Source: an uncultured virus (IMG/VR IMGVR_UViG_3300013121_000030) (lineage: Duplodnaviria > Heunggongvirae > Uroviricota > Caudoviricetes). From it: a DNA stretch of 64,000 nt. The notes beneath the pieces are model-generated. The model saw only the letters and a program-made list of their open reading frames with translations. It was not told the DNA's origin and made no database searches. Position 1 is the stretch's first letter. Each line of letters begins with the position of its first letter. Where the stretch lies: positions 160,001 to 224,000 of the IMG/VR virus record IMGVR_UViG_3300013121_000030. The stretch is one strand, 5' to 3'. Shown piece by piece: positions 9,121 through 58,199 of the stretch. The translations under genes were made by a program, and so were the position numbers.

Positions 9121-9149
9121 TTGTAAGGTGAGATGACACGTGCTACTCT
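9121..9149 (+). promoter_or_regulatory. Phage promoter-like motif; leaderless ATG at 9156
   Basis: TTGTAAG-N11-CGTGC-TACTCT-N6-ATG. Confidence 0.7.
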
Positions 9150-9155
9150 CGCGGC

Positions 9156-9623
9156 ATGGAACACACCACGTGTGGAGAGAAAGATTGCGGTACAGTCTCC
9201 TGCTACGTCAGGATGCGGCGCCAGGGGGTCAACTGTCCTCGCTGCAAGCAAGCTAAGGCTCTCTATGAGAGAGCCCGAAGAGTTCTTCCCCCAGAGCTTG
9301 TGGGGGCAGGAGATCCCGAAAGGGTAGCAGAAGACATTATCATTCAGACACTCCTACTCAGTTCAGAGGGGAGGCCGCTCAAAGAAGTAGCGGAAATCGC
9401 GGGGGTCCCAGTTTCGAGGTTGTATCGAATGGGACCTTCGCCAATTCCTCCTGTGTCCGCCTCCCCCAAGTGCGGGGAGCTGCGAAAGTATCGGGGTGGG
9501 TGTCGGTGTGATGCGTGTAAGGAGGCGAATCGTCTCCATTCATATAAGTATCGACCCAAAAAGGTGGGGAAGAGAATGTCTTCCATCCTCCCACACCAAG
9601 ACGTGGGCGTGGCGGTAATGTAG
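9156..9623 (+). CDS. Zn-finger/HTH regulatory protein
   Basis: Two Cys clusters (CPRC; GCRCDAC) flanking LKEVAEIAGVPVSRLY. Confidence 0.7.
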   Translation: MEHTTCGEKDCGTVSCYVRMRRQGVNCPRCKQAKALYERARRVLPPELVGAGDPERVAEDIIIQTLLLSSEGRPLKEVAEIAGVPVSRLYRMGPSPIPPVSASPKCGELRKYRGGCRCDACKEANRLHSYKYRPKKVGKRMSSILPHQDVGVAVM

Positions 9624-9625
9624 GG

Positions 9626-10279
9626 ATGATGCGCGATGATACAGACCGGATAGGAGAGATTCTGGAGCACCTGAGGAAGTTGTCTGAGGCAGTGCAGACA
9701 CTGATCCGTCTCCAACTTGGGGAGGGTGGCTCCAAAGAGAAGTCTCAAGAAAATTCCAAGGTAATTAGCCCAATCGTGCCTGAGGATGTGGAGGTCATCG
9801 GGAAGGACTTGAGCATATCTCCCTTACACTGTGAGGTAATGTGGGAGATTAAAACCTCCCTCACATCTCTGAGAGTTGGGGAAGGAACTTCTTTTGTTAC
9901 CGAAAGTCGAGGTCTCGTTGAGGCTTCAAAGATTCTCGTAGGGCAGAGAATAGCCCTCGTTCATGGGGTGGGGGAGTTTTCTTTCTGGGAATATGTGGAA
10001 GTCCTTGAAGTTTTGAAGAAAGAGGGTGGGGACGCCAAACGAATTGACAGTGTATCTCCAGTCTTTGCGCAGTTGGGGCCAGAAAAATGGGTCCTTCCGG
10101 TAGGTCCGGTTGAGGATCGGTGTCTGCCTCCAGAAAAGGTTGGAGATGCGGATCCGGACGAATTTGACGAAGTTCTTCGTCAAGTTGAGAGTGCAGGTTT
10201 CAAAATCAAGGCAGTGTCGAACTTCGTCCTCGATGGGAGTTCGACTCGGGAATATGTGATAGAGGGTCTCCCTAAATAG
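9626..10279 (+). CDS. Hypothetical protein
   Basis: 217-aa ORF following 9156..9623. Confidence 0.6.
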   Translation: MMRDDTDRIGEILEHLRKLSEAVQTLIRLQLGEGGSKEKSQENSKVISPIVPEDVEVIGKDLSISPLHCEVMWEIKTSLTSLRVGEGTSFVTESRGLVEASKILVGQRIALVHGVGEFSFWEYVEVLEVLKKEGGDAKRIDSVSPVFAQLGPEKWVLPVGPVEDRCLPPEKVGDADPDEFDEVLRQVESAGFKIKAVSNFVLDGSSTREYVIEGLPK

Positions 10280-41583: not shown

Positions 41584-42483
41584 CCTCGACTATCTGTGAT
41601 CCCGTAAGGGTTTAGGCACGGGAGATCTTTTGAGGGATCCAGCTCCTGGCGGTCAAAGCCTCGACTATCTGTGATCCCGTAAGGGTTTAGGCACTTACCG
41701 CCGCGCCGATCTAGCCGAGTGGTTCGCCACCTCGACTATCTGTGATCCCGTAAGGGTTTAGGCACACATGCACAGCGTTCGTTTGTGATCTTCAAATCGT
41801 CCTCGACTATCTGTGATCCCGTAAGGGTTTAGGCACTCCGCCCTCCGGGGCGGGGAGAGGGCATCCCCAAGGACCCTCGACTATCTGTGATCCCGTAAGG
41901 GTTTAGGCACACCTTGTAGCCGCTCGGTGCGGCGCGCACCGTGATCCTCGACTATCTGTGATCCCGTAAGGGTTTAGGCACGACGAGCTCTTCCAGTAGA
42001 CCGCTCAGGGCGAGGCGCCTCGACTATCTGTGATCCCGTAAGGGTTTAGGCACACGGCCTGGGCCGTGGCCGTGCGGGCTGCCTTGGCTAGCCTCGACTA
42101 TCTGTGATCCCGTAAGGGTTTAGGCACGGGGTCATCTTGGTTCTCTTTCGGGTTTCGGGTTTCGGCCCCCTCGACTATCTGTGATCCCGTAAGGGTTTAG
42201 GCACGCTAGGCACGCCAGCGCGGCGGAATACGACACCGCCCTCGACTATCTGTGATCCCGTAAGGGTTTAGGCACGCGACGTGGAGCCTCGGCGGCGGCC
42301 GCCCGTTCGGCCTCGACTATCTGTGATCCCGTAAGGGTTTAGGCACCCGGCGGTGATCTCCTCTAGTAGCCATGACCCCGAACACCCCACGACTATCTGT
42401 GATCCCGTAAGGGTTTAGGCACTGGACGCGGGGGCCGGAGGGTGGGCCCCCGCCTATCTGTGATCCCAAAGGGGATGGGAAGG
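41584..42483 (+). CRISPR. CRISPR array: 12 repeats + 1 degenerate, 12 spacers
   Basis: 36-bp repeat CCTCGACTATCTGTGATCCCGTAAGGGTTTAGGCAC at 41584, 41659, 41730, 41801, 41875, 41946, 42018, 42092, 42169, 42240, 42311, 42387 (1 mismatch), 42448 (degenerate); spacers 35-41 bp (last 25). Confidence 0.98.
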
Positions 42484-42486
42484 CGG

Positions 42487-43164
42487 TTATTTTTTGGCGG
42501 GAATTGGAACCCAGATTTCGCTCGGACCCGTCATGTCCCACCAAATTTGGTAAGTGGAGCCTTTCTTGACAATGGCTTGGTAATTGTAGGCAAACGAATT
42601 GGAGCCTCCATAATCCATGACCACACCCCCTTCCGCAGACTTCCAAGCACCTGCAACTCTTTGCACAAATGTCTTTCCGCCATTTGTGACCTTCCAACGG
42701 CGGAAGGCGTTGAGATCAGCAATCATGGACTGACGGTCTTGGGGTGTTCCGAGGCGGCCGGCGGCTTTTGTCCACCGGCTGTAGGGACCATTCTGATAGT
42801 CGATCTCAAAGACGGCCGCAGAAACCTGACGGAACTCCGTGAAGTAATGGCCCTTGTAAGCATTCGGGGTTAACAACACGTTCCAAAACGGCCCGAGATT
42901 ATCATTGATGACGGGCTTGAAGATGTTGCCGTCTGGCAGGAAGGACACGGAGTGTGCGGATCCTTCCGAAAACGGTCGAACCACTGCCGTTTTCAGAGTC
43001 ACACCCTTTTGAAGCATTTCACAGCTCCACTTGGTCCCAATCTCTGCCAACTTGGCAAAGGCCATGAGCGCCTGTGGCTCGGCTTCAGCGATTCGGGACA
43101 ACCGATCGAGTTGTGAAAAACTTGCAGCAAGTGAAGCGAACCGATGAGGATTGTTGGGTGACAT
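42487..43164 (-). CDS. Hypothetical protein
   Basis: 225-aa ORF converging on array trailer. Confidence 0.65.
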   Translation of the reverse strand: MSPNNPHRFASLAASFSQLDRLSRIAEAEPQALMAFAKLAEIGTKWSCEMLQKGVTLKTAVVRPFSEGSAHSVSFLPDGNIFKPVINDNLGPFWNVLLTPNAYKGHYFTEFRQVSAAVFEIDYQNGPYSRWTKAAGRLGTPQDRQSMIADLNAFRRWKVTNGGKTFVQRVAGAWKSAEGGVVMDYGGSNSFAYNYQAIVKKGSTYQIWWDMTGPSEIWVPIPAKK

Positions 43165-44146: not shown

Positions 44147-45435
44147 GGGATTACCTCTCGAAGGATGGCTACTGTCTCCTGGACGATGAGGAGGATCCAT
44201 TGTCGGATCAGGTTTTTCTTGGAGGCTTCGATCTGTTGCATGGCTGCCAAGAACTCGCTGGCTACCCACAGATCTTCTGAGATCGAAGCGAGAGGAACAT
44301 GTCTTCCCGACAGAATGTCCTCTAAAAGACCCGTGATACGATGTAATCCGGGCTCGCCTTCCGAGCGCAAGGCGTCCGTTAGGACTGCCAAAATTGCCCG
44401 TTGGGCTGGGTTGTCTAGGTTTCTGGCTTCTTCCTCAAGTGAGTGGAGAGCCTTTTTTAGTGTGTCATTCATTCTCCCTCCCAAATCTTGGTGAGTGCCT
44501 GAATGAGATGTTTCTGGAGTTGCTTGAAATCCGCCCTCATCCTTTGAGATTTAAGCGTCTGCCATTCCCTCCACGCCTTCTGGATGGCGCCGTTAGCATC
44601 TCTTTTTGCATAACTTCCGCCATCATTGGTGGCGATGGTCATGATGGTGTCCCACATTTCCTCTTGTGGAGGATTCATCCAGTGGATCGGGGCATCGTAC
44701 AATAGCTCAGAGACTTTTCGCTGGGCCACTCGTTTGGCAATTTGATCTAGCGATTCCATTTTCACACCTCCACAGACCAAGTTGGGCACAATTCCGAAGG
44801 ATCCCCAACCTCTGGGAGGTCCTGGGGACGGACCTCCTGAAGTCCGGCGTTGTGGCGCATCATCCCAATGTGATAGGACAGCCGAGACCTCAGAAGAAGG
44901 ACCGTTTTTGCGGACTCCTCACACAGGGGTGTCGTCCACCGAGTGTTCCGACATTCACAGGATCCCGTCTGAAGGTGTTTCTCCAACAGGTCCGTCGTCT
45001 TCATGATGGACATCTGGAGGAACTCCAGCTCCATCGAGTAGACGCGAGCATCTCGTAAAATAACCTTCGGAGATGCGCATCCTACCAGAATCAAAAATGG
45101 GATGAGGGTTCGGGGGCCCATCGTACTGTTGGGCCTCCAATAACCCAATCACCAGAGGTCATAGACCTCCCACGCCAACCCCACCGTCAATCCTATATAA
45201 CCCACACATGCGGCGATGTAAGCAACCAAATCCAGTCGAAAGTGGAGGCGCTTGGAGGTGCTGCACTTCACACAAGCTTGACACGAACACCCCATTGGAG
45301 ACTCCTCCCTTGAACTACTCGTTCTTGAGGAAACCTCGTTGGAAGGTGCGCAGCCAGTCAAGGCTCCCATTTTCCAGTTTCCAGAAACGAGAAAAACCGC
45401 ACCCACTCCCACAACGCCTGCTGGTACCATGGGGA

Positions 45436-45999
45436 ATGGCGCTTCAGCCTTCAGCTCTTGAGGCGGCAATAATCGCGTCGTTCTCTTTTACAGGGTCACA
45501 AACTATGCCCTGGATTGCCAGGGCAGTAGGACAAGCGTTCGCAACATGGGCTCCCACAGTTGTTTTTCAAGGGGCGACGACAGGCTTCGCTGGGTCGGGG
45601 TTGGTGACAGGCAAGGTGTTTCTCCAGGGATCTGGACTTGTTCCAGCGGCGATGGCTGGTGTGGGCCTTTCGAGTGTAGGAGTGGAGATTGGTCGGGCGA
45701 TAGAAGCAGGGATTGTTGAAACGGTCCAGGCATCAGCCCAATATGCTGGGGCCTCTGCTGGGGTTGGGACTGGATCGGATGTTTCATCTGTGCGGTTGGT
45801 GTCCCAGGCGGGGCTTTTGGTCCTTTTGACTTCGGCCCTCAGAGGAGCACAAATTGAAGGATTATCCTCCTCCCAACTCGCCGCTGGGATCTCGGCAGGA
45901 GTGGCAGCACTAACCCGTACCTGTACAGGGGTGGGCGTGGTGGCTGGCGCCAACGCAGGAGTCCCAGGGGCGGGGACATCGCTCAGCACGATGTTTTGA
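45436..45999 (+). CDS. Gly/Ala-rich putative virion protein
   Basis: MALQPSAL..GVGTGSD..GVGVVAG composition. Confidence 0.55.
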   Translation: MALQPSALEAAIIASFSFTGSQTMPWIARAVGQAFATWAPTVVFQGATTGFAGSGLVTGKVFLQGSGLVPAAMAGVGLSSVGVEIGRAIEAGIVETVQASAQYAGASAGVGTGSDVSSVRLVSQAGLLVLLTSALRGAQIEGLSSSQLAAGISAGVAALTRTCTGVGVVAGANAGVPGAGTSLSTMF

Positions 46000-46787: not shown

Positions 46788-46816
46788 GTGTAACTTTGGG
46801 GTACACGTGCTAACCT
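46788..46816 (+). promoter_or_regulatory. Phage promoter-like motif heading the RNA island
   Basis: GTGTAAC-N11-CGTGC-TAACCT. Confidence 0.75.
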
Positions 46817-46941
46817 TCAATCATCGGGAAGCGGAGAAGCTTCTCGAATCCCTTCGGGGTTTGGCACAAATCTGGGGACGAGGGTTCGATTCCCTCACCT
46901 CCTGCTCCTTTCCAACCGAATAGCCGAAGAAGAGCATTCTT

Positions 46942-47013
46942 GCAGGTGTAGTTCAGTGGTAGAACGCCAGCCTTCCACGCTGGATGCCGAGGGTTCGAGT
47001 CCCTCTACCTGCT
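46942..47013 (+). tRNA. tRNA-Gly(UCC)
   Basis: CCAGC-CT-TCC-AC-GCTGG cloverleaf. Confidence 0.9.
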
Positions 47014-47015
47014 CT

Positions 47016-47089
47016 GATCCTGGATGCTACATGGGGATACATCTGACCGTTAACCAGAACCACGACCCTCATGCGTTTTTGCCAGGGTC
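47016..47089 (+). ncRNA. Y-RNA/YrlA-like unit 1 (short)
   Basis: GATCCTGG-ATGC..CATGGGG-ATACAT..CCTCATG..TTTTG-CCAGGGTC. Confidence 0.6.
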
Positions 47090-47350
47090 TTCTTTTTGGG
47101 GGAAAAAGTGATCCCCCGACACCCAAGAGACTGACCTAGTTCTTCCCCTTGACTCTGGGGGAGTCTGCGAGGTTGAGGGTGGTGGGCCATGAGTCTTCCG
47201 CCCACTCACTTTGACGCTTGGGGGAATAGACCCCGGAGTACAGCACTGTTGCTCGCAGATCTCTCTCTTTTGAGAGAGGAGTTGTAGGCCAACAACTTCA
47301 GCCCCGCTGGGGATCTGGAAACAGGCGGACACGCTGGATAGACAGCGGGT

Positions 47351-47421
47351 GGGGAAGTCCTCGCTGGTGCGAGGCCAGGGTCTTGAAACGCTGGGTGTAG
47401 GTTCGATTCCTATCTTCCTCA
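47351..47421 (+). tRNA. Atypical tRNA-like gene (6-bp D stem; anticodon uncertain)
   Basis: GGGGAAG/CTTCCTC acceptor, CCTCGC-TGGT-GCGAGG D-arm, GTAGGTTCGATTCCTAT T-arm. Confidence 0.5.
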
Positions 47422-47423
47422 AA

Positions 47424-47642
47424 GCCTCTGTGTGCCCAACGGATAGGGCGCCCCAAAAACGTAGGGGGGGTACCTGTAAAAAGGCCGTTATCGACTCTGG
47501 GGGGTAGAAACGATCCTTCGGAGGTAGACCACATAGGTTGCGGATGCACCGGGCCCGACTAAAGAGTTATCGGGTAGGGAAGCGAGTTTCCTAAATAGGG
47601 TCTTTTGCGCGACGGATGCGGGTTCGACTCCCGCCTGAGGCA
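47424..47642 (+). ncRNA. tRNA-like RNA with ~160-nt insert in place of anticodon arm
   Basis: GCCTCTG/CTGAGGC acceptor (one mismatch), GCCC/GGGC D-arm, GCGGGTTCGACTCCCGC T-arm. Confidence 0.45.
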
Positions 47643-47652
47643 TTGTTCGAGA

Positions 47653-47726
47653 GCGTGCCTAGCTCAACTGGATAGAGCATCGGTCTTCGGAACCGAGGGT
47701 TGGGGGTTCGATTCCCTCGGCGCGCG
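47653..47726 (+). tRNA. tRNA-Arg(UCG)
   Basis: TCGGT-CT-TCG-GA-ACCGA. Confidence 0.9.
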
Positions 47727-47730
47727 CTTC

Positions 47731-47814
47731 GCTCACCTGGTGGAATTGGCAGACACACTGGATTCAGGTTCCAGTACCGTAACAGGTGTGGGGGTTCGAC
47801 TCCCCCGGTGAGAA
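47731..47814 (+). tRNA. tRNA-Leu(CAG)
   Basis: CTGGA-TT-CAG-GT-TCCAG; G1-A72 mismatch. Confidence 0.85.
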
Positions 47815-47860
47815 ACTGTCCTACATGTGGGACATACTTCAGAGGTCGGTGAAAAAAGTT

Positions 47861-47934
47861 GTGTAACTCGGGTCGCCCCGTGCTACACTTGGGGTGTCGC
47901 GGTTGAGACCACGACGCCTCTCTGAAAACTGAAG
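47861..47934 (+). promoter_or_regulatory. Phage promoter-like motif + hairpin + boxA-like
   Basis: GTGTAAC-N11-CGTGC-TACACT, hairpin 47891-47920, TCTGAAAACTGAAG. Confidence 0.75.
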
Positions 47935-47956
47935 AGTTCTGAAGAAGAGCATTCAT

Positions 47957-48027
47957 GCAGGTGTGGTCCAGCGGTAGGACGCTGCCTTGCCAAGGCGGAA
48001 GCGAGAGTTCGACTCTCTCCACTTGCT
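47957..48027 (+). tRNA. tRNA-Gly(GCC)
   Basis: CTGCC-TT-GCC-AA-GGCGG. Confidence 0.9.
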
Positions 48028-48029
48028 TA

Positions 48030-48345
48030 CGGATCTTTTCGAGTCGTGTGAACCCTGGTCAATCAGGCTGCACCTAAAAGAATGGGGTGCGGGTGAGGAA
48101 GACCCACAAGGCTCGAAAGAAACATGCGCCCCCTGGCTGATCATGGGGGACGCGGGCGGATGGCCCCTGTCCAGGGTCTGGAGCCGACAGACACGATCTC
48201 ATGTGCCGTTGAACGGGGGGGGGGTGATCACCCTCGCTAGGCGGGATCGGGTCGACGGCGAAACTGGGCTTTCCAGTCCCAGCAAGCGGCGGACACACTG
48301 CGTCGCATCTGTGATGTCCCCCCACAGGCCAACCAGGGGGACGCT
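48030..48345 (+). ncRNA. Unassigned structured RNA, copy A
   Basis: Shares TGTGAACCCT, GGAGCYGAYAG and GACGGCGAAA-stem-CAAGCGGCGGAMACACTGCGTCGCA with copy B. Confidence 0.5.
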
Positions 48346-48418
48346 GCCCGAATAGCTCAACAGGAAGAGCGCCGCTTTCGTACTGCGGAGGCTATCGGTT
48401 CGATTCCGGTTTCGGGCT
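48346..48418 (+). tRNA. tRNA-Thr(CGU)
   Basis: CCGCT-TT-CGT-AC-TGCGG. Confidence 0.85.
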
Positions 48419-48605
48419 TTCCGATCGATGGGAGTTTCGATCGGGGTGTTATCCTCCGGTCCGCGGAGCCTCGCCAAGTCATCTCCACGGTCTGTCCGGA
48501 GGATTTCTCTGGGGGAACTTGGCTCATCCCACAAACCCTCCACACTGCCCCAGTGTGCTTGACAGATGGACTGGCCAGTCCTGAAGACAAGAGAATGGGG
48601 TTTTT

Positions 48606-48678
48606 GCCCGAATAGCTCAGATGGGAGAGCGCTACCTTGGTACGGTGGAGGTCGCCGGTTCGATTCCGGTTTCGGGCT
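48606..48678 (+). tRNA. tRNA-Thr(GGU)
   Basis: CTACC-TT-GGT-AC-GGTGG. Confidence 0.9.
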
Positions 48679-48683
48679 CGATT

Positions 48684-49060
48684 GCGTTTGTAGCTCATCG
48701 TCACAAGCGCAACTGTGAACCCTTGATAAGTTCACAGAGGGTGCTCCCCATCCATCCTAGGTCGTGCGTGGGGAGATGTCCGTGGAGCTGATAGCTACTT
48801 TCGCAGTCTGGAGTGAGGTGATTCCTCCCCAGGGGTTTCTAGTGGCCCCAATGAACTGCGTTACCGTGGGCGTGGAACCCCATGGGACAGAGAGCGACGG
48901 CGAAATGGGGGTGAGGTGACCCCACAAGCGGCGGAAACACTGCGTCGCAAAAACAGGACAGTTGATCGGGTCCTGAGGCCCCTCCCGAAAGGGAGGAGGT
49001 AGCCAGATTCGAGTCCCAAACCTCGGCCGCAGGTTCCTAGAACCTTGGCGAAGTGGGGGT
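48684..49060 (+). ncRNA. Unassigned structured RNA, copy B
   Basis: Same ordered blocks as copy A; many hairpins; no ORF in the track. Confidence 0.5.
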
Positions 49061-49131
49061 AACCTTGAAGCTCAATGGTGGAGCAACCGTTAAATCACCG
49101 GGGGTCGTCAGTTCGATTCTGACCAAGGGTA
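49061..49131 (+). tRNA. Degenerate/undetermined tRNA
   Basis: D- and T-arms intact, anticodon arm irregular (ACCGTTAAATCACCGG). Confidence 0.5.
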
Positions 49132-49195
49132 CTGAGGGAGCCATCCCTTTCTGGCATGGGGCGCTGATGTCTTCGTGTCAGAGAAAATGGCAACT

Positions 49196-49267
49196 GCCCG
49201 GGTAGCTCAGCGGTAGAGCGATGCCCTTACAAGGCGAGGGTCGGGGGTTCGATCCCCTCCCTGGGCA
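49196..49267 (+). tRNA. tRNA-Val(UAC)
   Basis: GCC-CT-TAC-AA-GGC. Confidence 0.88.
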
Positions 49268-49309
49268 CAATGAGGTTCCAGGATAAAACCTCTTGAAACG
49301 CCTGGGAAT

Positions 49310-49382
49310 GGGGCCTTAGCTCAATTGGGAGAGCGCCTGCTTTGCACGCAGGAGGTCATCGGTTCGATCCCGATAGGCTCCA
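49310..49382 (+). tRNA. tRNA-Ala(UGC)
   Basis: CCTGC-TT-TGC-AC-GCAGG; G3:U70. Confidence 0.92.
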
Positions 49383-49505
49383 CTGAAGTGCTGTCGTCTA
49401 AGTTGCTGGGCCCCCGCGACGCCCAGTGGCCCCCGTGATACCAATCATCGGGAGAAAGATCCCGTTAGGGAAATGCCAGAGAAACCCTGGCCATGCACTT
49501 CTCAA

Positions 49506-49587
49506 GCTCGCCTGGTGGAATTGGCAGACACGCCAGACTAAGGATCTGGTGCCTTCGGGTGTGGGGGTTCGAGTCCCCCGGTGAGCA
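49506..49587 (+). tRNA. tRNA-Leu(AAG)
   Basis: CCAGA-CT-AAG-GA-TCTGG. Confidence 0.85.
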
Positions 49588-49633
49588 AGTATCCTACATG
49601 TAGGACACATCTTCGGAGTCGAAGAAAAAAGTT

Positions 49634-49707
49634 GTGTAACTCGGGTCCTCTCGTGCTACACATGGGGAGCCGCGGTCGAGATCGCGGCGCCTCCCTGAAA
49701 ACCGAAG
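49634..49707 (+). promoter_or_regulatory. Phage promoter-like motif + hairpin + boxA-like
   Basis: GTGTAAC-N11-CGTGC-TACACA, hairpin, CCTGAAAACCGAAG. Confidence 0.75.
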
Positions 49708-49729
49708 AGTTCTGAAGAAGAGCATTCAT

Positions 49730-49816
49730 CCGTGGGTGGTTGACTGTCGGTAAGTCACAGCGGTCTGTAAAACCGCCCGCCTTCGGGCGTCGGGGGTTCA
49801 ACTCCCTCCCCACGGA
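49730..49816 (+). tRNA. tRNA-Tyr(GUA) with C1:G72
   Basis: CCGTGGG/CCCACGG-A acceptor; GCGGT-CT-GTA-AA-ACCGC; long variable arm. Confidence 0.85.
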
Positions 49817-49893
49817 CCGAAAAGTGCGTTGTCTCGGCTACGAAACCGAGGCTGTGGGCTCCGCCAGACAAGCCCGAAATGAAACCTGGCCCT

Positions 49894-49981
49894 GGAAGGG
49901 ACGCGAATGTTGGGTTTTCGCACTCGATTGGAAATCGAGCGTTCTCAAAAGGGACCGAGGGTTCAATTCCCTCCTCTTCCG
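49894..49981 (+). tRNA. tRNA-Ser(GGA)
   Basis: CTCGA-TT-GGA-AA-TCGAG; long variable arm. Confidence 0.82.
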
Positions 49982-50138
49982 CAAGGTCTTCCCATTCGTA
50001 TCATTGGAACCCCTCCTTGAAGCAGGGAGAGAGCTTCTGGTTAGCCTCATTTGACCAAGGTGGTTCGAGTCCACCACTTTCATGACTCTCGTATGAGGAC
50101 GAGAGTGGGGAAAGATGGGTACGTTGGGAAGCCTCTAT

Positions 50139-50212
50139 CGCGGGATAGAGCAGTCTGGTAGCTCGTCAGGCTCATAACCTGAAGGCCGCTGGTTCAAATC
50201 CAGCTCCCGCAA
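50139..50212 (+). tRNA. tRNA-fMet(CAU)
   Basis: C1:A72 mismatch, GAGCAGTCTGGTAGCTC D-arm, CT-CAT-AA. Confidence 0.88.
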
Positions 50213-50223
50213 TTCGTCGATCA

Positions 50224-50295
50224 GGGATATTGGTCCAGTGGTCAGGACGCTGCGCTGTCTACGCAGAAGCGAGGGTTCGATTCCCTCATGTCCCG
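50224..50295 (+). tRNA. tRNA-Asp(GUC)
   Basis: CTGCG-CT-GTC-TA-CGCAG. Confidence 0.88.
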
Positions 50296-50442
50296 CAGCT
50301 TCAGTTCAGGTCTACCCTGTGTGACCGGGGTGAGAGGTCATGGTGGGTCTGCATATTCATCGTTCCGTTCGATTCGGATAGCGGCCGGGCGGCTGCGAAA
50401 CAAACGCCGATGCAGAGGCGGTGAGATCTGAGCTGAGCGTTT

Positions 50443-50515
50443 GCAGGAGTAACTCAGTTGGCAGAGTGTCAGCTTCCCAAGCTGAATGTCGCGGGTTCGA
50501 GCCCCGTTTCCTGCT
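50443..50515 (+). tRNA. tRNA-Gly(CCC)
   Basis: TCAGC-TT-CCC-AA-GCTGA. Confidence 0.9.
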
Positions 50516-50524
50516 AGATCTTCT

Positions 50525-50598
50525 CGGAGTACGGGCTCAAGGTGGGCCGCCTGTTTTGGGAACAGGATATCAGGAGGGTTCGATCCCCTCTACTCCGA
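50525..50598 (+). tRNA. tRNA-Pro(UGG), atypical D-arm
   Basis: CCTGT-TT-TGG-GA-ACAGG; C8; GGCTC-AAGGT-GGGCC. Confidence 0.8.
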
Positions 50599-50600
50599 CT

Positions 50601-50666
50601 GTTCGGATGCCCCTGGGGGATTACATTCTTTTGGTGAACTGCACATCTCCCAAATATTTGCCGAAC
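50601..50666 (+). ncRNA. Y-RNA/YrlA-like unit 2 (short)
   Basis: GTTCGG-ATGC..TGGGGGAT-TACAT..ATCTCCCA..TTTG-CCGAAC. Confidence 0.6.
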
Positions 50667-50670
50667 AAAC

Positions 50671-50742
50671 GTCCGTATAGCTCAATGGATAGAGCAACGG
50701 TCTACGGAACCGAAGATCCAGGTTCGAGTCCTGGTATGGACA
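50671..50742 (+). tRNA. tRNA-Arg(ACG)
   Basis: CGGT-CT-ACG-GA-ACCG. Confidence 0.9.
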
Positions 50743-50744
50743 CT

Positions 50745-50826
50745 GCCTCGAATGCTGTAGAGGACTACATTGAAAACGTCCGACTAACCCTCGGATAGAA
50801 GTGTCTTCTCAATCTTTCGTCGAGGT
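50745..50826 (+). ncRNA. Y-RNA/YrlA-like unit 3 (short)
   Basis: GCCTCGA-ATGC..AGAGGAC-TACAT..GTCTTCT..TTCG-TCGAGGT. Confidence 0.6.
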
Positions 50827-50830
50827 GTTA

Positions 50831-50904
50831 GCGCGTGTAGCTCAGTTGGTTAGAGTGCTGTCCTGATAAGACGGAGGTCGCAGGTTCAATTCCTGCCATG
50901 CGCA
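50831..50904 (+). tRNA. tRNA-Ile(GAU)
   Basis: CTGTC-CT-GAT-AA-GACGG. Confidence 0.9.
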
Positions 50905-50908
50905 CTGT

Positions 50909-51034
50909 CCTGGATGCTCGATGGGGTTTCATTTCGTCTGAACCACGAGAGGACTGGGTTCGAGTCCCAGCGGTCGGGAAACTGGCTGTGGTGTAAAGGT
51001 AGCACAAAAACAAGTCTCATCACACTTTGCCAGG
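50909..51034 (+). ncRNA. Y-RNA/YrlA-like unit 4 with permuted tRNA domain
   Basis: T-arm CTGGGTTCGAGTCCCAG, acceptor closed by GAAA, then D-arm, inside CCTGG/CCAGG stem. Confidence 0.75.
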
Positions 51035-51039
51035 CATCT

Positions 51040-51111
51040 TGGTGTGTCGTCCAAAGGCTAGGACGTCGGTTTCTGACACCGCGAATGGGGGTTCGAGTCC
51101 CTCCACACCAA
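51040..51111 (+). tRNA. tRNA-Gln(CUG)
   Basis: U1:A72; CGGT-TT-CTG-AC-ACCG. Confidence 0.88.
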
Positions 51112-51133
51112 AGGATTCTCAGGGTTTAGACAC

Positions 51134-51206
51134 GGGCTGGTAGCTCAACTGGCAGAGCGGCGGACTCTTAATCCGTAGGTTGAGGGTTCGACTCCCTCTC
51201 AGCTCA
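51134..51206 (+). tRNA. tRNA-Lys(CUU)
   Basis: GCGGA-CT-CTT-AA-TCCGT. Confidence 0.9.
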
Positions 51207-51211
51207 CACAT

Positions 51212-51282
51212 GGTCTCATGGTCGATTGGTCAGGCGGCAGTCTGCAAAACTGCATAAGGGGGTTCGATTCCCCCTGAGACCT
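51212..51282 (+). tRNA. tRNA-Cys(GCA)
   Basis: GCAGT-CT-GCA-AA-ACTGC; U73. Confidence 0.88.
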
Positions 51283-51284
51283 CA

Positions 51285-51357
51285 GGGCGCATCGTCTAAC
51301 TGGCGAGGATAGGAGGACCTCACCCTCCAGATGCGGGTTCGATCCCCGCTGCGCTCA
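51285..51357 (+). tRNA. tRNA-Glu(CUC), C33 variant
   Basis: GGAGG-AC-CTC-AC-CCTCC. Confidence 0.75.
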
Positions 51358-51360
51358 CAG

Positions 51361-51496
51361 CTCGGATGCTGTAAGGGAATACATCAAACCGCGGGTCGCA
51401 GGTTCAAGCCCTGCCCCCCACAATCGACGTGGGGGTAGCTCAGTTGGGAGAGCAGCGGTCTTGCCGTCAGGCATATTCTCTTCGATTTTCGCCGAG
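51361..51496 (+). ncRNA. Y-RNA/YrlA-like unit 5 with permuted tRNA domain
   Basis: ACCGC, T-arm GCAGGTTCAAGCCCTGC, CCCCCAC-loop-GTGGGGG, TAGCTCAGTTGGGAGAGC, GCGGT; inside CTCGG/CCGAG. Confidence 0.8.
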
Positions 51497-51502
51497 TCAC
51501 TA

Positions 51503-51576
51503 CGGGATGCGGGCTCAAGGTGGGCCGCCTGTCTGGGGGACAGGACATCAGGTGGGTTCGATCCCCATCATCCCGA
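51503..51576 (+). tRNA. tRNA-Pro(GGG), atypical D-arm
   Basis: CCTGT-CT-GGG-GG-ACAGG. Confidence 0.8.
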
Positions 51577-51578
51577 CC

Positions 51579-51705
51579 GCCGAATGCTTTGAGGGAGTAC
51601 ATCCATTGGGCGGACGAGGACCAGGTTCGACTCCTGGCCTCCCCAAATGTGGGGAGGTAGTGTAACGGATAGCACGCGAAAAATCCTCTCTCTACTTTTG
51701 TCGGC
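51579..51705 (+). ncRNA. Y-RNA/YrlA-like unit 6 with permuted tRNA domain
   Basis: CCAGGTTCGACTCCTGG, CCTCCCCA-AATG-TGGGGAGG, TAGTGTAACGGATAGCAC; inside GCCGA/TCGGC. Confidence 0.8.
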
Positions 51706-51711
51706 ACCTAT

Positions 51712-51788
51712 CGGAGTACGGACTCAAGGCGGGTCGCCTGTTTCGGGAACAGGATATCAGGAGGGTTCGATCCCCTCTACTCCGACCA
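51712..51788 (+). tRNA. tRNA-Pro(CGG), atypical D-arm, encoded CCA
   Basis: CCTGT-TT-CGG-GA-ACAGG. Confidence 0.8.
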
Positions 51789-51799
51789 GTAATCTCCAT

Positions 51800-51883
51800 G
51801 GAGGGATGGCCGAGAGGTAAGGCAGCGCTTTGCTACAGCGTCGTCTGGTACAGCCAGCGGGGGTTCGATTCCCTCTCCCTCCG
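51800..51883 (+). tRNA. tRNA-Ser(GCU)
   Basis: GCGCT-TT-GCT-AC-AGCGT. Confidence 0.88.
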
Positions 51884-51889
51884 CACCTT

Positions 51890-51974
51890 GGAAGGGCAAG
51901 CCAATGGGCGATGGCGCCGAACTCGAACTTCGGTGAGCGTAACTGCCTTGTGGGTTCGACTCCCACTCCTTCCG
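51890..51974 (+). tRNA. tRNA-Ser(CGA)
   Basis: CCGAA-CT-CGA-AC-TTCGG. Confidence 0.85.
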
Positions 51975-52380
51975 CAAGGAATGCTTAGACGCCTGTGGAT
52001 TGGGGTCAGCGTCGTCCACAGGGGGCCGACTTTGAGTCTGAAAATCTCAACGAGGGATTTTCGGGCTTGCACGTTCGGTGGTGTCTCTCCGGGGGCAAGC
52101 CATAACGGCCCTGAGGTGCAGGTTCTCTTAGTGGAACAACACACTTCGAGGAGAGACCACTGGTGCCAACGAACCCACATTATTAGTGGGAGCGAGCTTT
52201 CTGCTAGGCTCTCCAGAGTGCTGTAGGGTGAACCGACTGCCTCAATAGGTTGGTGACGATGGTGGAGAGACACCTGAGATCAGGTCTCGTGGAATCCGTT
52301 ATTTTTATAACGGTGCTTGTAAGTGGCTCGCAAGTGAGGTCTCTTAAAAGGGATCACTCCAAGAACCTGAACTTTTTTCT

Positions 52381-52507
52381 GCGGATGCTCGAAGGGGTTT
52401 CATCACTGCCAATGACGAGTTCCAGGTTCGATTCCTGGCTCCCGCAAACGTCTGCGGGAGTAGTTTAAGGGTAAAACGCGATACGATCCTCTTCACTTTT
52501 TTGCCGC
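52381..52507 (+). ncRNA. Y-RNA/YrlA-like unit 7 with permuted tRNA domain
   Basis: CCAGGTTCGATTCCTGG, CTCCCGCA-loop-TGCGGGAG, TAGTTTAAGGGTAAAAC; inside GCGG/CCGC. Confidence 0.8.
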
Positions 52508-52514
52508 GGATTCT

Positions 52515-52586
52515 CGTGGGGTAGCACAATGGTAGGGCAGGGGCCTCATAAGCTCAAGGTTGCGGGTTCGATTCCCGCCCTCACGA
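52515..52586 (+). tRNA. tRNA-Met or Ile2 (CAU)
   Basis: GGGC-CT-CAT-AA-GCTC. Confidence 0.78.
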
Positions 52587-52593
52587 CTCATCT

Positions 52594-52667
52594 CGGAATG
52601 TAGCGCAGTCTGGTAGCGCGCCTGTTTTGGGTACAGGAGGCCGAGGGTTCGAGTCCCTCCATTCCGA
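52594..52667 (+). tRNA. tRNA-Pro(UGG), canonical
   Basis: CCTGT-TT-TGG-GT-ACAGG. Confidence 0.9.
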
Positions 52668-52668
52668 C

Positions 52669-52908
52669 TTATTTCCTCCAGAATCGAGTCACGCGAATCT
52701 TGGCGGCTTTGTGGAGAGCATCAGCGTTTTGGTCCAGAAGTTTTCGGATCGCTTCCAGCTCCCGATAATTTTTGGCATTACGATGCCAACACAGGTATTC
52801 AAGGTGTTCGGCTTTCAGCCATCCCACCTGAGAATCCTCGTGCGAAGCAAGGATTGCTCGCTGTTCAAGAGCAAGGTTCTCTCTCTCGTGCAATGTCTTC
52901 ACATCCAT
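52669..52908 (-). CDS. Small hypothetical protein inserted antisense in the tRNA array
   Basis: 79-aa ORF filling an inter-tRNA gap; AAGGTG upstream. Confidence 0.5.
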   Translation of the reverse strand: MDVKTLHERENLALEQRAILASHEDSQVGWLKAEHLEYLCWHRNAKNYRELEAIRKLLDQNADALHKAAKIRVTRFWRK

Positions 52909-52929
52909 GGCACCTTCTTACCCTTCCGA

Positions 52930-53004
52930 TCGGGGTTCGTCTAGTCTGGTCTAGGACGGCAGATTTTGATTCTGCTTACCGGGGTTCAAATCCCTGACCC
53001 CGAA
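52930..53004 (+). tRNA. tRNA-Gln(UUG)
   Basis: GCAGA-TT-TTG-AT-TCTGC. Confidence 0.88.
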
Positions 53005-53010
53005 TCTCTT

Positions 53011-53082
53011 GCCCCAGTAGCTCAATGGCAGAGCGCCCGGCTGTTAACCGGATGGTTGTAGGTTCGAGTCCTACCTGGGGCG
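53011..53082 (+). tRNA. tRNA-Asn(GUU)
   Basis: CCGG-CT-GTT-AA-CCGG. Confidence 0.9.
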
Positions 53083-53114
53083 TTTGGTGCTCTTCTTCGA
53101 TCTGTGATTCCGCT

Positions 53115-53187
53115 GGCCCCATCGTCTAGCGGCCTAGGATGCCGGTCTTTCACGCCGGTCACGCGGGTTCGAGTCCCGCTGGGGTCA
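53115..53187 (+). tRNA. tRNA-Glu(UUC)
   Basis: CCGGT-CT-TTC-AC-GCCGG. Confidence 0.9.
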
Positions 53188-53198
53188 AAACTCGTCAG

Positions 53199-53250
53199 GG
53201 CCCGCGTCCTTCCTCCCTCCGAAACGAAAGGACGCGGGCCATTCCTTTTT
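53199..53250 (+). terminator. Putative terminator of the RNA island
   Basis: GGCCCGCGTCCTT/AAGGACGCGGGCC stem followed by T-rich tract. Confidence 0.6.
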
Positions 53251-56945: not shown

Positions 56946-57568
56946 AAGAGGGCCTCTTCCGTGTTCAAGCATCCATAACCTTTTACGTTTGGGCCTCCTG
57001 TGAAACGGAGGCTGAAGAGATCGCAGAAGATGAGCTGGTAACGGGAGGGGTTTGGGAAGGTGAGGATGTCCAGATTGGGGCAGAATCGGTCTCAGCGTGG
57101 GAAAACGACCCAGAGATGATTCCAATTTCCCGGACTTGTCCGGGGATTACACTTGGGAAGTTGAGGGAAGGAGATTCGGAGAGCCTTCTGGCGAATCTTT
57201 TTCCCCTGTCTGTCACACAACAACCCCCAGTGCGCCACAGAACCCCAGCTGGGGAACTTGCAGTCTCGTATGGAGAAGGTTTGGTGGTGATCTACCACCT
57301 CCAACGAGCCTCCGAAGAGAATCCAGTGTGGTCGGGTCAGGCGGAGTTGGTGGGTCTTCCAACGACAACTTCCGAAGACTTTGACTTTGGTCTTTTGGAT
57401 GAAATCATCCAGGTGCTTCTGAGGCACTTTCCAAAGTCCTCTCCTCAAGAGACGAGCCAGAGGACCTTGGCCATGGAAGGGGGAGCTGTGTTGGAGGTGC
57501 GTGGAGGTAGATTCTGGACAATCTATCTGGCTTCGGAGAAGCCAGGGTATGAGGAGCATGATCGTTGA
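56942..57568 (+). CDS. Hypothetical protein
   Basis: ATGA-coupled to the sigma-like gene; overlaps cas6. Confidence 0.6.
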   Translation: MKEGLFRVQASITFYVWASCETEAEEIAEDELVTGGVWEGEDVQIGAESVSAWENDPEMIPISRTCPGITLGKLREGDSESLLANLFPLSVTQQPPVRHRTPAGELAVSYGEGLVVIYHLQRASEENPVWSGQAELVGLPTTTSEDFDFGLLDEIIQVLLRHFPKSSPQETSQRTLAMEGGAVLEVRGGRFWTIYLASEKPGYEEHDR

Positions 57569-58199
57569 AGTCTCCATCCCACTCATTCCTCTCGACACAG
57601 CCCCTCTTCCAGTCCAACATGGCTACGCTCTCTTCGGAGCCCTCAGCACCCAGTTTGGTGGAGCGATCCATGAGACACCATGCCAGATCGCTCCCATCCG
57701 GGGGAACTTTGTCCCCGGGGAGAACGCCCATCTAGTCATCCCGTCGCCACATCCAAATGCTCCGTTCAATCCTCGTATCCTCATCAGGACCGATGAGATG
57801 AGCGCCGGGGCATTTCGTTTCACACGGCCCAAGCTCCTTCAGGTGGCGGGCAAGTTCTTCGCCTTGCAGCCCCCGAGGATCCAGGGGATTATGCCGTGGG
57901 CCCATCTCTGGGCTCGATGCGTTACCTTTTCGGGGGCTCGGGAGCGGGCCCACTTTGAAGCCTGCCTTCAGAAGGATTTGGGGTGGCTGGATCCGACGAA
58001 GATTCGGATTGGCCGGAGGAGGGTCGTGTCCGTCAAGGACCTCGATTATGTGGGGTACGAGGTCAAGCTCTCGCAGCTCTCCCCCGAGGAGTCCTGTGCA
58101 ATCCAGGCTTCGGGAGTAGGCGGCAAGAAGCATATGGGAGCTGGTGTGTTCCTGGGCACCGCTCCTGCGTTCTTCGGGGCACAGGACTACGTCCCCTGA
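57558..58199 (+). CDS. cas6: Cas6 endoribonuclease, Myxan type
   Basis: LPVQHGYALFGALS; G-rich loop GVGGKKHMGAGVF. Confidence 0.92.
   Translation: MIVEVSIPLIPLDTAPLPVQHGYALFGALSTQFGGAIHETPCQIAPIRGNFVPGENAHLVIPSPHPNAPFNPRILIRTDEMSAGAFRFTRPKLLQVAGKFFALQPPRIQGIMPWAHLWARCVTFSGARERAHFEACLQKDLGWLDPTKIRIGRRRVVSVKDLDYVGYEVKLSQLSPEESCAIQASGVGGKKHMGAGVFLGTAPAFFGAQDYVP

Follow-up and report, generated by a model that had tools for sequence, protein, structure and literature searches.

Seven probable YrlA/YrlB-class Y RNAs interspersed in the tRNA array of a wastewater phage that encodes its own Ro60

Introduction

Phage tRNA arrays, such as those in the T4/PrrC, T5/PARIS and related systems, replace or evade tRNAs cut by host defences. 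A different departure from ordinary tRNA genes is found in Cyanidioschyzon merolae, whose circularly permuted tRNA genes encode the 3′ half before the 5′ half and mature via a circular intermediate into ordinary tRNAs. Among RNA-protein systems, Ro60 binds YrlA and YrlB in Salmonella and Mycobacterium smegmatis (Chen et al. 2014, PMC4201824). In Thermus phage phiLo, the phage Ro60 binds two phage Y-like RNAs as well as host PNPase, and the authors of that study propose that host PNPase is hijacked (PMC12135203). In archaeal tRNA gene clusters, a TROVE gene is linked in 20 of 29 cases (Morgado and Vicente 2019, PMC6333295).

Here we analyzed a window of 64,000 nt (positions 160,001 to 224,000 of IMG/VR record IMGVR_UViG_3300013121_000030) from the 234-kb genome of a wastewater phage, in which seven small Y-RNA genes (U1 to U7) are interspersed among tRNA genes.

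Results

Structural analysis located all seven units of the original prediction at the places it gave, on the plus strand (47016-52510), and each folds independently (MFE) into the scaffold described there. Common to all is a handle made of a unit-specific closing stem, an AUGC/UUUYG internal loop, a G-rich inner stem and UACAU. The features of the locus are as follows:

46788..46812, + strand: phage promoter motif GTGTAA-N13-GTGCTA (putative function), preceding tRNA-Gly(tcc) and U1
46942..53188, + strand: tRNA array hosting the units, about 31 tRNA genes, CCA not encoded
47016..47089, + strand: U1, short YrlB-like Y RNA, handle joined to a single imperfect hairpin (loop CCGUUAA)
49634..49658, + strand: phage promoter motif GTGTAA-N13-GTGCTA (putative function), preceding the transcription unit expected to hold U2-U7
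50600..50667, + strand: U2, shortest Y RNA, handle and 18-nt insert without a clear hairpin
50744..50827, + strand: U3, short Y RNA, handle plus 5-bp hairpin with 7-nt loop CUAACCC
50909..51034, + strand: U4, handle plus complete permuted tRNA (model R1, 93.9 bits)
51360..51497, + strand: U5, canonical YrlA architecture (Rfam YrlA 37.4 bits, MFE fold)
51579..51705, + strand: U6, handle plus complete permuted tRNA, loop AUUGGGC (UGG, G37; R1 126.9 bits)
52378..52510, + strand: U7, handle plus complete permuted tRNA, loop CUGCCAA (GCC, A37; R1 127.7 bits)
53198..53250, + strand: GC-rich hairpin with a T-run behind it, likely the array's terminator, from direct reading of the sequence

The likely terminator was missed by a consensus terminator scan because its loop is long. 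Spacing to the tRNA genes is tight: U1 begins 1 nt past tRNA-Gly(tcc), U2 lies 0 nt from the upstream tRNA-Pro and 3 nt from the downstream tRNA-Arg, and the gaps of U3 to its flanking tRNA-Arg and tRNA-Ile are 0 and 3 nt. Overall, a tRNA gene stands 0-3 nt upstream in six of seven units and 3-6 nt downstream in six of seven. The units are bracketed by the RNase P and 3′-end processing sites of the array tRNAs, and given these gaps, tRNA processing should free them.

To evaluate covariation, we used a model-guided alignment of the seven units with two units from Myxococcus phage Mx1. Paired cells reached 92.8% in this nine-unit alignment versus 70.4 ± 2.5% in shuffles (0/500), and 16 of 22 pairs had changed on both sides, compared with 8.2 ± 1.8 in shuffles (0/500). 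Shifting the partner by 1-3 columns left only 41-59% paired. Covariation was present in all four modelled helices, and swapping 3′ strands among the closing stems never equalled the observed pairing (0/20,000 with 9 units; 0/50,000 with 15 units), indicating that these stems are unit-specific. This pattern bears out the earlier claim that stem sequences differ between units while pairing is kept.

Model searches placed the units in the YrlA family. With U4-U7 and Mx1 unit M1 as its only training set, a model (R1) recovered the held-out U1 (28.9 bits, E 5e-7), U3 (27.9 bits) and U2 (19.0 bits, E 3e-4), all three through the handle alone, and its scan of the 234-kb genome returned no true unit beyond the seven. 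The handle corresponds to the module through which bacterial YrlA binds Ro60 and aligns with the conserved YrlA nucleotides of Rfam RF02553 (consensus CGAAUGC ... UUGUCG). The Rfam YrlA search that had been proposed as a check gave matches of 37.4 bits for U5 (the best in the genome), 33.6 for U7, 29.1 for U6 (in a match that aligns its handle with the consensus) and 24.8 for U2, while none of the seven units reached the gathering score of 69 bits. For comparison, the YrlA site published for mycobacteriophage Bxz1, immediately ahead of its Ro60 gene, scores 32.5 bits, similar to U5, U6 and U7, and the same Rfam model also matches true tandem tRNAs (52541-52646, 51063-51182 and G000 102975-103056). 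Sub-gathering Rfam scores speak against a Y-RNA reading, as does the GNCGAA motif, whose first A is a G in five of seven units.

Beyond this genome, R1 matched RNAs adjoining Ro60 genes in two unrelated metagenome-assembled contigs (E 5e-15 to 8e-8), one of which exceeds the Rfam YrlA cut-off at 69.7 bits. Myxococcus phage Mx1, whose Ro60 is the closest among phages (34.7% identity), carries two units with the same handle in its tRNA array, at a distance of about 11 kb on the upstream side of the Ro60 gene. The fit to the YrlA consensus and the recurrence of the handle beside Ro60 genes uphold the proposed YrlA-type identity. As YrlA/YrlB-type Y RNAs, the units are therefore probable Ro60 ligands, as had been suggested; the partner, however, need not be the host protein, since the phage encodes a full-length Ro60 of its own.

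This gene lies about 175 kb from the units on the opposite strand, so that the reported lack of Ro60 holds for the window but fails for the genome. Its product carries TROVE and vWA_Ro60, has D. radiodurans Rsr as its best solved relative (E 4.5e-22) and shares about 40% identity with bacterial Ro60 over about 90% of the length. Published YrlA genes were collected at ≤4 kb and on the same strand, and the distance and orientation seen here count against a Y-RNA reading. The suggested genome search for TROVE and RtcB thus found the former, whereas RtcB is absent from the phage genome. An RlaP RNA-repair nucleotidyltransferase is encoded two or three genes downstream of Ro60, and the genome also holds an Rnl2-type RNA ligase. 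The array promoter motif, with 13 copies in the window (0.01 expected), recurs 45 nt upstream of the Ro60 start codon and before RlaP; as it has 41 copies genome-wide, its sharing by Ro60 and the array is weak evidence of specific co-regulation.

Analysis of the distal modules revealed the predicted circularly permuted tRNAs in U4-U7, which run from the T arm through a 7-bp loop-closed acceptor stem and U8-N9 to the D arm. U4 reads, in full, as an anticodon arm (loop CUGAACC) and a 4-nt variable loop, then the T arm, the sealed 7-bp acceptor, U8-G9 and finally the D arm. In U4, U6 and U7 the tRNA is complete, with its opening placed between the D and anticodon arms; when re-opened at the sealed acceptor, these units are called by ARAGORN as tRNA-Phe(gaa), tRNA-Pro(tgg) and tRNA-Gly(gcc), respectively. 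An ARAGORN tRNA-Gly(gcc) at 52380-52447 was rejected as a misreading of U7. The tRNA-like domain of U5, where a G15:C48 pair is possible, has a 5-bp equivalent of the anticodon stem, opens at the would-be anticodon loop and continues into the handle.

Hairpins with 7-nt loops and the predicted central triplets occur in five units (U1, U3, U4, U6 and U7), and U occupies position 33 in four of these. Three reservations apply: pairing in the U1 stem is imperfect; the stems of U6 and U7 include an A-C mismatch, and their first three pairs draw on the CAU of the conserved UACAU; and position 37 in U3 and U4 is C rather than a purine. [quoted passage not shown] The phage genome encodes no CCA-adding enzyme of its own.

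An RNA-library contig matching the phage exactly spans 51345-51508 (U5), and U7 is covered by RNA-library contigs from two studies; these phage-identical contigs give only a weak hint of expression, with contaminating DNA a possible source. In a related strain, the sealed acceptor of U6 carries two compensatory double changes (51640/51655 and 51642/51653). Between U6 and its closest paralogue, U7, few parts have diverged as much as the hairpin loop (3/7), and the stem is kept through a compensatory change. A variant-strain RNA contig (depth 3.9) places three of its five differences within the U6 loop, yielding AUCGUAC, which in this single contig is identical at six of seven positions to the tRNA-Thr(cgt) loop encoded by the phage itself.

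Discussion

Collectively, the units are probably YrlA/YrlB-class Y RNAs that serve the phage's own Ro60. Their sequence family, structure, co-occurrence with Ro60 in the genome and spacing to tRNAs are direct observations.

For transcription, processing, Ro60 binding and downstream function, we infer the following course. The units would be transcribed from phage-specific promoters within a polycistronic tRNA operon, and the cuts that mature neighbouring tRNAs would also release the Y RNAs, with 3′-end maturation of the upstream tRNA setting the 5′ end and RNase P at the downstream tRNA setting the 3′ end. The released ends would then pair into the unit-specific closing stem. Ro60 would be bound through a module formed by the internal loop and inner stem with their conserved motifs (AUGC, GGG, UACAU, UUUYG), and the putative partner of this module is the phage-encoded Ro60, which has the same promoter motif and is clustered with RlaP. 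The distal modules, which vary from none through a single hairpin and a canonical YrlA tRNA-like domain (U5) to a whole permuted tRNA (U4, U6 and U7), may link Ro60 to different partners that bind tRNA or degrade RNA, for example host PNPase or tRNA repair and modification enzymes; alternatively, they may gate the Ro60 cavity during infection.

Could the units instead act independently of Ro60, as decoys whose hairpins and permuted tRNAs absorb host anticodon nucleases or other tRNA-targeting defences, with the handle as a stable clamp? We consider this unlikely as a full explanation, although a decoy role could coexist with Ro60 binding. The five hairpins and their four U33 residues are in keeping with it, and tRNAs usually have A37 with GUU and GCC and G37 with UGG, so that position 37 of U1, U6 and U7 fits the cognate family; U3 and U4, with C37, do not fit, and U2 and U5 lack such a hairpin. 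The loop divergence and stem preservation between U6 and U7 also accord with decoys, but that stem overlaps UACAU by three pairs and contains the mismatch. The concentrated loop changes approaching tRNA-Thr(cgt) are a further point in favour, though they come from one shallow contig. RlaP and the Rnl2 ligase fit a conflict over tRNA cleavage (PMC7824862), yet the handle is a conserved YrlA module found by Ro60 genes and would be superfluous for a plain clamp.

That the units fill inter-tRNA spacers with very short gaps, and that their closing stems resemble processing stalks, would also suit cis-acting punctuation of the operon (RNase III/E entry sites or insulators) without a trans-acting product. 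Such a role is very improbable: most spacers of the same array lack a unit, punctuation needs neither conserved single-stranded motifs nor tRNA-like cargo, members of the same RNA family adjoin Ro60 genes at sites that lie outside a tRNA array or past its end (L015 6684-7018), and YrlA and YrlB are known from published work as stable RNAs bound to Ro60 (PMC4201824). Unselected by-products of tRNA duplication or rearrangement, such as tandem-tRNA fusions or pseudogenes, could mimic YrlA through the T arm of one tRNA and the D arm of the next, and the Rfam model does match tandem tRNAs here. This origin is extremely unlikely given the compensatory changes among paralogues and between strains, the conservation of a non-tRNA handle across phages and contigs, and a likeness of the un-permuted bodies to their cognate phage tRNAs that does not exceed the background set by all other tRNAs (identity 0.59-0.63, versus 0.60 ± 0.06).

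Read as Y RNAs of the phage Ro60, the units can be set beside several known systems. They share with the T4/PrrC and T5/PARIS setting a large phage tRNA array and phage RNA-repair genes, but unlike the decoding tRNAs of T4 and T5, they cannot decode as encoded. As in the permuted tRNA genes of C. merolae, the tRNA 3′ half precedes the 5′ half; in the phage units, however, a short loop links the two acceptor ends, and a Ro60-type handle takes up the open ends. The linkage of TROVE/Ro60 to large tRNA arrays in Mx1 and the two metagenome-assembled contigs recalls the archaeal clusters, for which the protein gene alone is reported, with no Y RNAs (PMC6333295); the Ro60 gene of this phage lies outside its array. 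Phage phiLo likewise combines a phage Ro60 with phage Y-like RNAs (Yrl1 and Yrl2) bearing a CGAA-type motif in a stem-bulge-stem, but its two RNAs lie directly upstream of the Ro60 gene, and the available text mentions no tRNA array around them and no permuted tRNA that is complete (PMC12135203).

The closest likeness is to bacterial and mycobacteriophage YrlA/YrlB (PMC4201824; RF02553), in which a Ro60 gene likewise resides in the same genome. As there, pairing of the 5′ and 3′ ends forms a stem, and the internal loop holds a CGAAUGC-type motif, after which come the G-rich inner stem and, as a YUAY-type motif, UAC. The succession of T arm, sealed acceptor-like stem-loop and D arm is reproduced exactly in U5 and also in Mx1 M1, all of U4-U7 have the 7-bp acceptor stem of M. 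smegmatis YrlA (PMC4201824), and the short U1-U3, without a tRNA domain, resemble YrlB. Unlike YrlA, the units occur in seven copies interleaved with tRNA genes, far from Ro60 and on the other strand, five carry CGGAUGC instead of CGAAUGC, and their scores fall under the Rfam cut-off. U4, U6 and U7 further replace the anticodon-stem-like closing helix with an intact anticodon-like arm (5-bp stem, 7-nt loop), which means that the tRNA was opened at the 26/27 junction rather than in the anticodon loop. The system is an unusual form of an RNA-protein system already known from phages and bacteria, of which phage YrlA has been published.

Seven units share one covarying scaffold

The tRNA array of the phage contains seven units, designated U1-U7:

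47016-47089, plus strand, unit U1
50600-50667, plus strand, unit U2
50744-50827, plus strand, unit U3
50909-51034, plus strand, unit U4
51360-51497, plus strand, unit U5
51579-51705, plus strand, unit U6
52378-52510, plus strand, unit U7

As originally predicted, all seven are present on one scaffold, into which each folds alone: an end-to-end closing stem, an internal loop whose 5′ strand contains AUGC and whose 3′ strand contains UUUYG, a G-rich inner stem, the motif UACAU (UUCAU in U4 and U7) and a variable insert. We refer to everything but the insert as the handle, a proposed Ro60-binding module. A covariance model (R1) built from U4-U7 and one unit (M1) of Myxococcus phage Mx1, with U1, U2 and U3 held out, recovered U1 (E = 5e-7), U3 (E = 9.5e-7) and U2 (E = 3e-4) by the handle alone. 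The R1 scan of the phage genome revealed no true unit beyond U1-U7, the leftover matches being T arms or tandem tRNAs.

That the stems differ in sequence between units while remaining paired was likewise borne out. Because MAFFT alone misplaced the short units at their 3′ ends, we adopted a model-guided alignment of nine units, in which paired cells reached 92.8%, versus 70.4 ± 2.5 in shuffles (0/500), and two-sided changes affected 16 of 22 pairs, versus 8.2 ± 1.8 (0/500). With partner columns slid, pairing was only 41-59%. The closing stem is private to each unit, and exchange of 3′ strands between units never equals the observed pairing.

A loose pattern scan of the genome returned 11 additional candidates against ~7 by chance. 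The best, at 42433-42522 of the whole record (G000:C1), has a 10-bp stem; it lacks UACAU and falls within a 338-aa ORF, and was therefore rejected. Also discarded as false positives were G000:C1:102975-103056 on the minus strand, a tandem tRNA-Met/tRNA-Ser junction matched by both R1 and Rfam, and the Rfam YrlA matches at 52541-52646 and 51063-51182 of the window, which are tandem tRNAs.

The handle aligns to YrlA, and only U4-U7 carry its tRNA-like domain

Chen et al. (2014) listed four defining features of YrlA: the motif GNCGAAN0-1G, a YUAY, the T arm, and a D arm together with an acceptor-like stem-loop (PMC4201824). Their survey recorded it in 254 bacteria and 22 phages, never more than 4 kb from Ro60; location on the same strand as Ro60 and within about 4 kb was itself their collection criterion (PMC4201824). 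The motif is found near the 5′ end, in a helix with the 3′ end, in U6 (exactly, as GCCGAAUG) and in U3 (CUCGAAUG), and takes the form CGGAUG or UGGAUG in U1, U2, U4, U5 and U7, where the first A has become G and its pairing partner U has become C. Motif position 0 is GC in five units and AU in four. The Rfam alignment puts the unit motif on the YrlA consensus (RF02553; CgaAUGC ... gGg ... CUAc ... cUuGucG), which U6 matches position by position. Judged by sequence, the handle corresponds to the Ro60-binding end of bacterial YrlA.

The Rfam YrlA search proposed with the original prediction gave a divided outcome: the handle aligns to the consensus, but every score among U1-U7 (37.4, 33.6, 29.1, 24.8 and 15.1 bits) is below the gathering threshold of 69 bits. 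For calibration, a published YrlA site, the one immediately 5′ of Ro60 in mycobacteriophage Bxz1, scores only 32.5 bits, and a Ro60-adjacent relative found by R1 scores 69.7 bits, above the cut-off.

The tRNA-like domain of YrlA (T arm, acceptor-like stem-loop, D arm and tertiary-pair nucleotides) occurs in U4-U7 only; these have a T loop of the form UUCRANY, a D-loop GG, U8 and A14. A Levitt pair could form in U5 (G15:C48) and U7 (A15:U48), not in U4 or U6. U1-U3 are without this domain and resemble YrlB. We use "YrlB-like" solely for presence of the handle and absence of the tRNA domain: the one match to the YrlB family (RF02565) is U2, at 21.6 bits (E = 1.3; cut-off 97), and YrlB homologues are reported only within Salmonella serovars (PMC4201824). 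None of the units is a canonical-order cloverleaf with an open acceptor; U7 scores 20 bits with the tRNA model (RF00005; cut-off 29), and in U4, U6 and U7 every tRNA element is there, but permuted and with a sealed acceptor. The ARAGORN call of tRNA-Gly(gcc) at 52380-52447 is false, taking a U7 closing-stem strand as the acceptor, and automatic annotation of this kind would inflate the tRNA count.

Two architectures of the permuted tRNA

The circular permutation predicted for U4-U7 (T arm, sealed acceptor, D arm) was confirmed and takes two forms. U5 and Mx1 M1 are canonical YrlA: the junction is closed by a 4-5-bp equivalent of the anticodon stem, with the handle in place of the anticodon loop. 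In U4, U6 and U7 the handle leads into a 5-bp stem capped by a 7-nt loop and, past a variable loop of 4 nt, into the T arm; the sealed acceptor of 7 bp, U8-N9 and finally the D arm come next, with no helix to close the junction. With the acceptor loop cut open in silico, ARAGORN calls U4 tRNA-Phe(gaa), U6 tRNA-Pro(tgg) and U7 tRNA-Gly(gcc); these three are therefore entire tRNAs, with the opening at the 26/27 junction. This form was not seen in Bxz1, Mx1 or two metagenomic contigs with Ro60. The 7-nt-loop hairpins originally predicted are present, and those of U4, U6 and U7 are anticodon-like arms, with the caveats that the first three stem pairs of U6 and U7 use the CAU of the conserved UACAU, including an A-C mismatch, and that position 37 is C in the loops of U3 and U4.

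An origin of U4, U6 and U7 as recent copies of the phage tRNA-Phe, -Pro and -Gly was rejected, their identity (0.59-0.63) being that of background (0.60 ± 0.06). U6 and U7 are mutual closest relatives (0.77); the closing stem and anticodon-like loop are where they diverge most.

The phage encodes its own Ro60 in a cluster with RlaP

The absence of Ro60 noted in the original prediction holds for the window; a TROVE search of the whole record revealed one full-length gene (G000:C1:30086-31693, minus strand), which belongs to the following cluster:

G000:C1:27651-31780 (5652-9781 of the Ro60 region L012), minus strand, outside the window: Ro60, a weakly phosphatase-like ORF, an unnamed ORF and RlaP, the promoter motif standing before Ro60 and before RlaP

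The protein has both Ro60 domains (Pfam vWA_Ro60, 42.5 bits; TROVE, 33 bits), and its best solved relative is Rsr of D. radiodurans (PDB 2nvo, E = 4.5e-22). There are 3059 homologues at E ≤ 1e-10, the best with ~40% identity over ~90% of the length; the ~40%-identical proteins are named from Acidobacteria, Myxococcota and Betaproteobacteria. The units lie far from this gene, at record positions 207016-212510 on the plus strand, and neither the Rfam YrlA nor the R1 scan of the genome placed a unit near it.

The array promoter motif recurs ahead of the Ro60 start codon, at a distance of 45 nt, and 36 nt ahead of the RlaP gene (PF10127, 68.7 bits), which lies two or three genes downstream of Ro60; a cluster ORF weakly resembles a dual-specificity phosphatase (24.6 bits, below cut-off). 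RlaP extends damaged RNA 3′ ends by one or two nucleotides, and a role in tRNA repair has been proposed (bioRxiv 10.64898/2025.12.29.696909; PMC7824862). An Rnl2-type RNA ligase is encoded at 92.4 kb of the record. The proposed genome search for TROVE and RtcB, run on the phage genome, found Ro60 but not RtcB. No CCA-adding enzyme was found in the phage genome, and an Rnl1 search of it gave no match, its control search being likewise silent.

Placement between tRNA genes suggests a route of biogenesis

The array comprises ~31 plus-strand tRNA genes at 46.9-53.2 kb of the window, none encoding CCA, in a record of 234,244 bp and 55% G+C whose bases 160001-224000 make up the window. Its predicted promoter motif, GTGTAA-N13-GTGCTA, has 13 copies in the window versus 0.01 expected (41 genome-wide) and precedes array transcription units at 46788, 47861 and 49634. 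The same short leader, GAAGAAGAGCATTC, follows each array promoter right ahead of the first tRNA (46900-46941, 47915-47956 and 49690-49729), which suggests that promoter and leader are duplicated modules.

Six units begin 0-3 nt past a tRNA, and six stop 3-6 nt short of one. Given these gaps, tRNA processing would release the units, through 3′-end maturation of the upstream tRNA and RNase P cleavage at the downstream tRNA, leaving ends that would pair as the closing stem. Stems private to each unit would avoid mispairing inside a precursor with six units.

Other features were noted in and around the array. The segments 47350-47421 and 49061-49131 are tRNA-like by Rfam models (40.1 bits with tRNA-Sec, under its cut-off, and 35.1 bits with tRNA) and have no ARAGORN call. 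A 400-nt stretch (51976-52377) contains neither tRNA nor unit. A 79-codon ORF with a plausible ribosome-binding site and no Pfam match (52669-52908, minus strand) sits between two plus-strand tRNA genes. None of nine ORFs flanking the array has a Pfam match; ~4.3 kb downstream of the array, a 232-aa ORF (57501-58199, plus strand) matches Cas6 (PF09559, 91.3 bits, E = 1e-25).

The handle accompanies Ro60 in other genomes

The closest phage Ro60 is that of Mx1 (WNM70118.1; 34.7% identity), which has two same-handle units (record 45171-45292 and 45521-45624) inside a tRNA array ~11 kb upstream of its Ro60 gene. The short Mx1 unit (record 45521-45624; 9522-9625 of L006) overlaps hypothetical protein WNM70101.1 (45524-45646), annotated as a 40-codon protein and probably a mis-annotation.

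Two contigs with close Ro60 homologues, labelled Polyangiales and Pyrinomonadaceae, have tRNA arrays and, at 65-2200 nt from Ro60, three or four units apiece (R1 E = 5e-15 to 8e-8); one of these units, at 69.7 bits, passes the Rfam YrlA cut-off. Two units of the Polyangiales contig begin 3 nt past a tRNA, like the phage units. By Ro60 there are ~10 tRNA genes in the Polyangiales bin (L014 2500-4940) and ~35 in the Pyrinomonadaceae bin (L015 79-7020), with HNH, AbiEii and HEPN_AbiV genes nearby; both contigs may be mobile islands or phage-derived. A phage-like contig (L016 3660-5814; L017 8001-10155) encodes, in order, RNA ligase, RNase T, deformylase, methyltransferase and a Ro60 39% identical to that of the phage. 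A 547-nt gene-free gap follows, where R1 is weak (14.8 bits) and which may hold Y RNAs with another handle.

Archaeal tRNA gene clusters with a TROVE gene have been reported (PMC6333295); no description of Y RNAs interleaved in tRNA arrays was found in the literature searched. The array had no relative by megablast among 50,697 phage records, and neither Ro60, a flanking protein nor an exact 24-mer of U7 had a match in IMG/VR.

Strain variation and RNA-library contigs

Wastewater, aquatic and digester metagenomes contain identical or near-identical phage DNA; the strain and RNA comparison is based on assembled contigs only. A related aquatic strain shows double compensation in the sealed acceptor of U6 (U-A to C-G at 51640/51655, C-G to G-C at 51642/51653), its U6 handle being unchanged but for one loop base. 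In the same strain, 83 nt of the 400-nt stretch (52165-52249) are swapped for 77 other letters.

Exact-match contigs from a wastewater metatranscriptome, which may be DNA carry-over, cover U5 (51345-51508) and U7 (52348-52536). The 400-nt spacer, and U4 and U6 in run X12, are without contig cover, and nothing was read from these gaps. Contigs start at 52348, 30 nt before U7, in RNA of two studies; because upstream strain variation could break contigs there, we draw no 5′ end of U7 from this position.

Y RNAs of the phage Ro60 or anticodon-nuclease decoys

We consider it likely that U1-U7 are Y RNAs of the phage's own Ro60, made via the tRNA operon. The original prediction also raised the idea that the units are decoys for anticodon nucleases, a possible but unsupported role. 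Among published YrlA RNAs, the one whose acceptor stem has 7 bp is that of M. smegmatis; RNase P cuts it in the loop, and CCA is added in vivo (PMC4201824). Since the acceptor stem is 7 bp in all of U4-U7, opening and CCA addition would be plausible for them by analogy, and the label non-aminoacylatable given in the original prediction is insecure. A single low-depth RNA-library contig places three of its five differences within the U6 7-nt loop, yielding AUCGUAC, near the loop of the phage tRNA-Thr(cgt), which is suggestive but weak. A further reading would have U4, U6 and U7 (perhaps U5) opened by RNase P and CCA-tailed into two-piece, anticodon-bearing tRNA bodies on the phage Ro60 ring. 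There they would act with RlaP and the Rnl2 ligase as sentinels, decoys or repair platforms against host anticodon nucleases, their loops diversified between paralogues and strains to match target tRNAs; we regard this scenario as improbable.

The units offer a natural series that bears on the role of the tRNA-like domain: built on a shared handle, they run from no cargo through a single hairpin and the canonical YrlA domain to a whole tRNA with an anticodon arm, in a phage that also supplies its own Ro60 and repair enzymes. Placement between tRNA genes suggests a simple route of biogenesis, and because of it such RNAs are overlooked or mis-annotated, as with U7 (called tRNA-Gly) and one Mx1 unit (called a protein). 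Mx1, with its two units and Ro60, can be grown on a genetic model host; binding, processing and phenotype are therefore directly testable.

Y RNAs associated with bacterial or phage Ro60 are already known (PMC4201824, PMC12135203). New here are the sevenfold use of the canonical YrlA handle, their distribution over a tRNA operon distant from Ro60, each unit in its own spacer, a subclass with an entire permuted tRNA and its anticodon arm, and the clustering of the Ro60 gene with RlaP.
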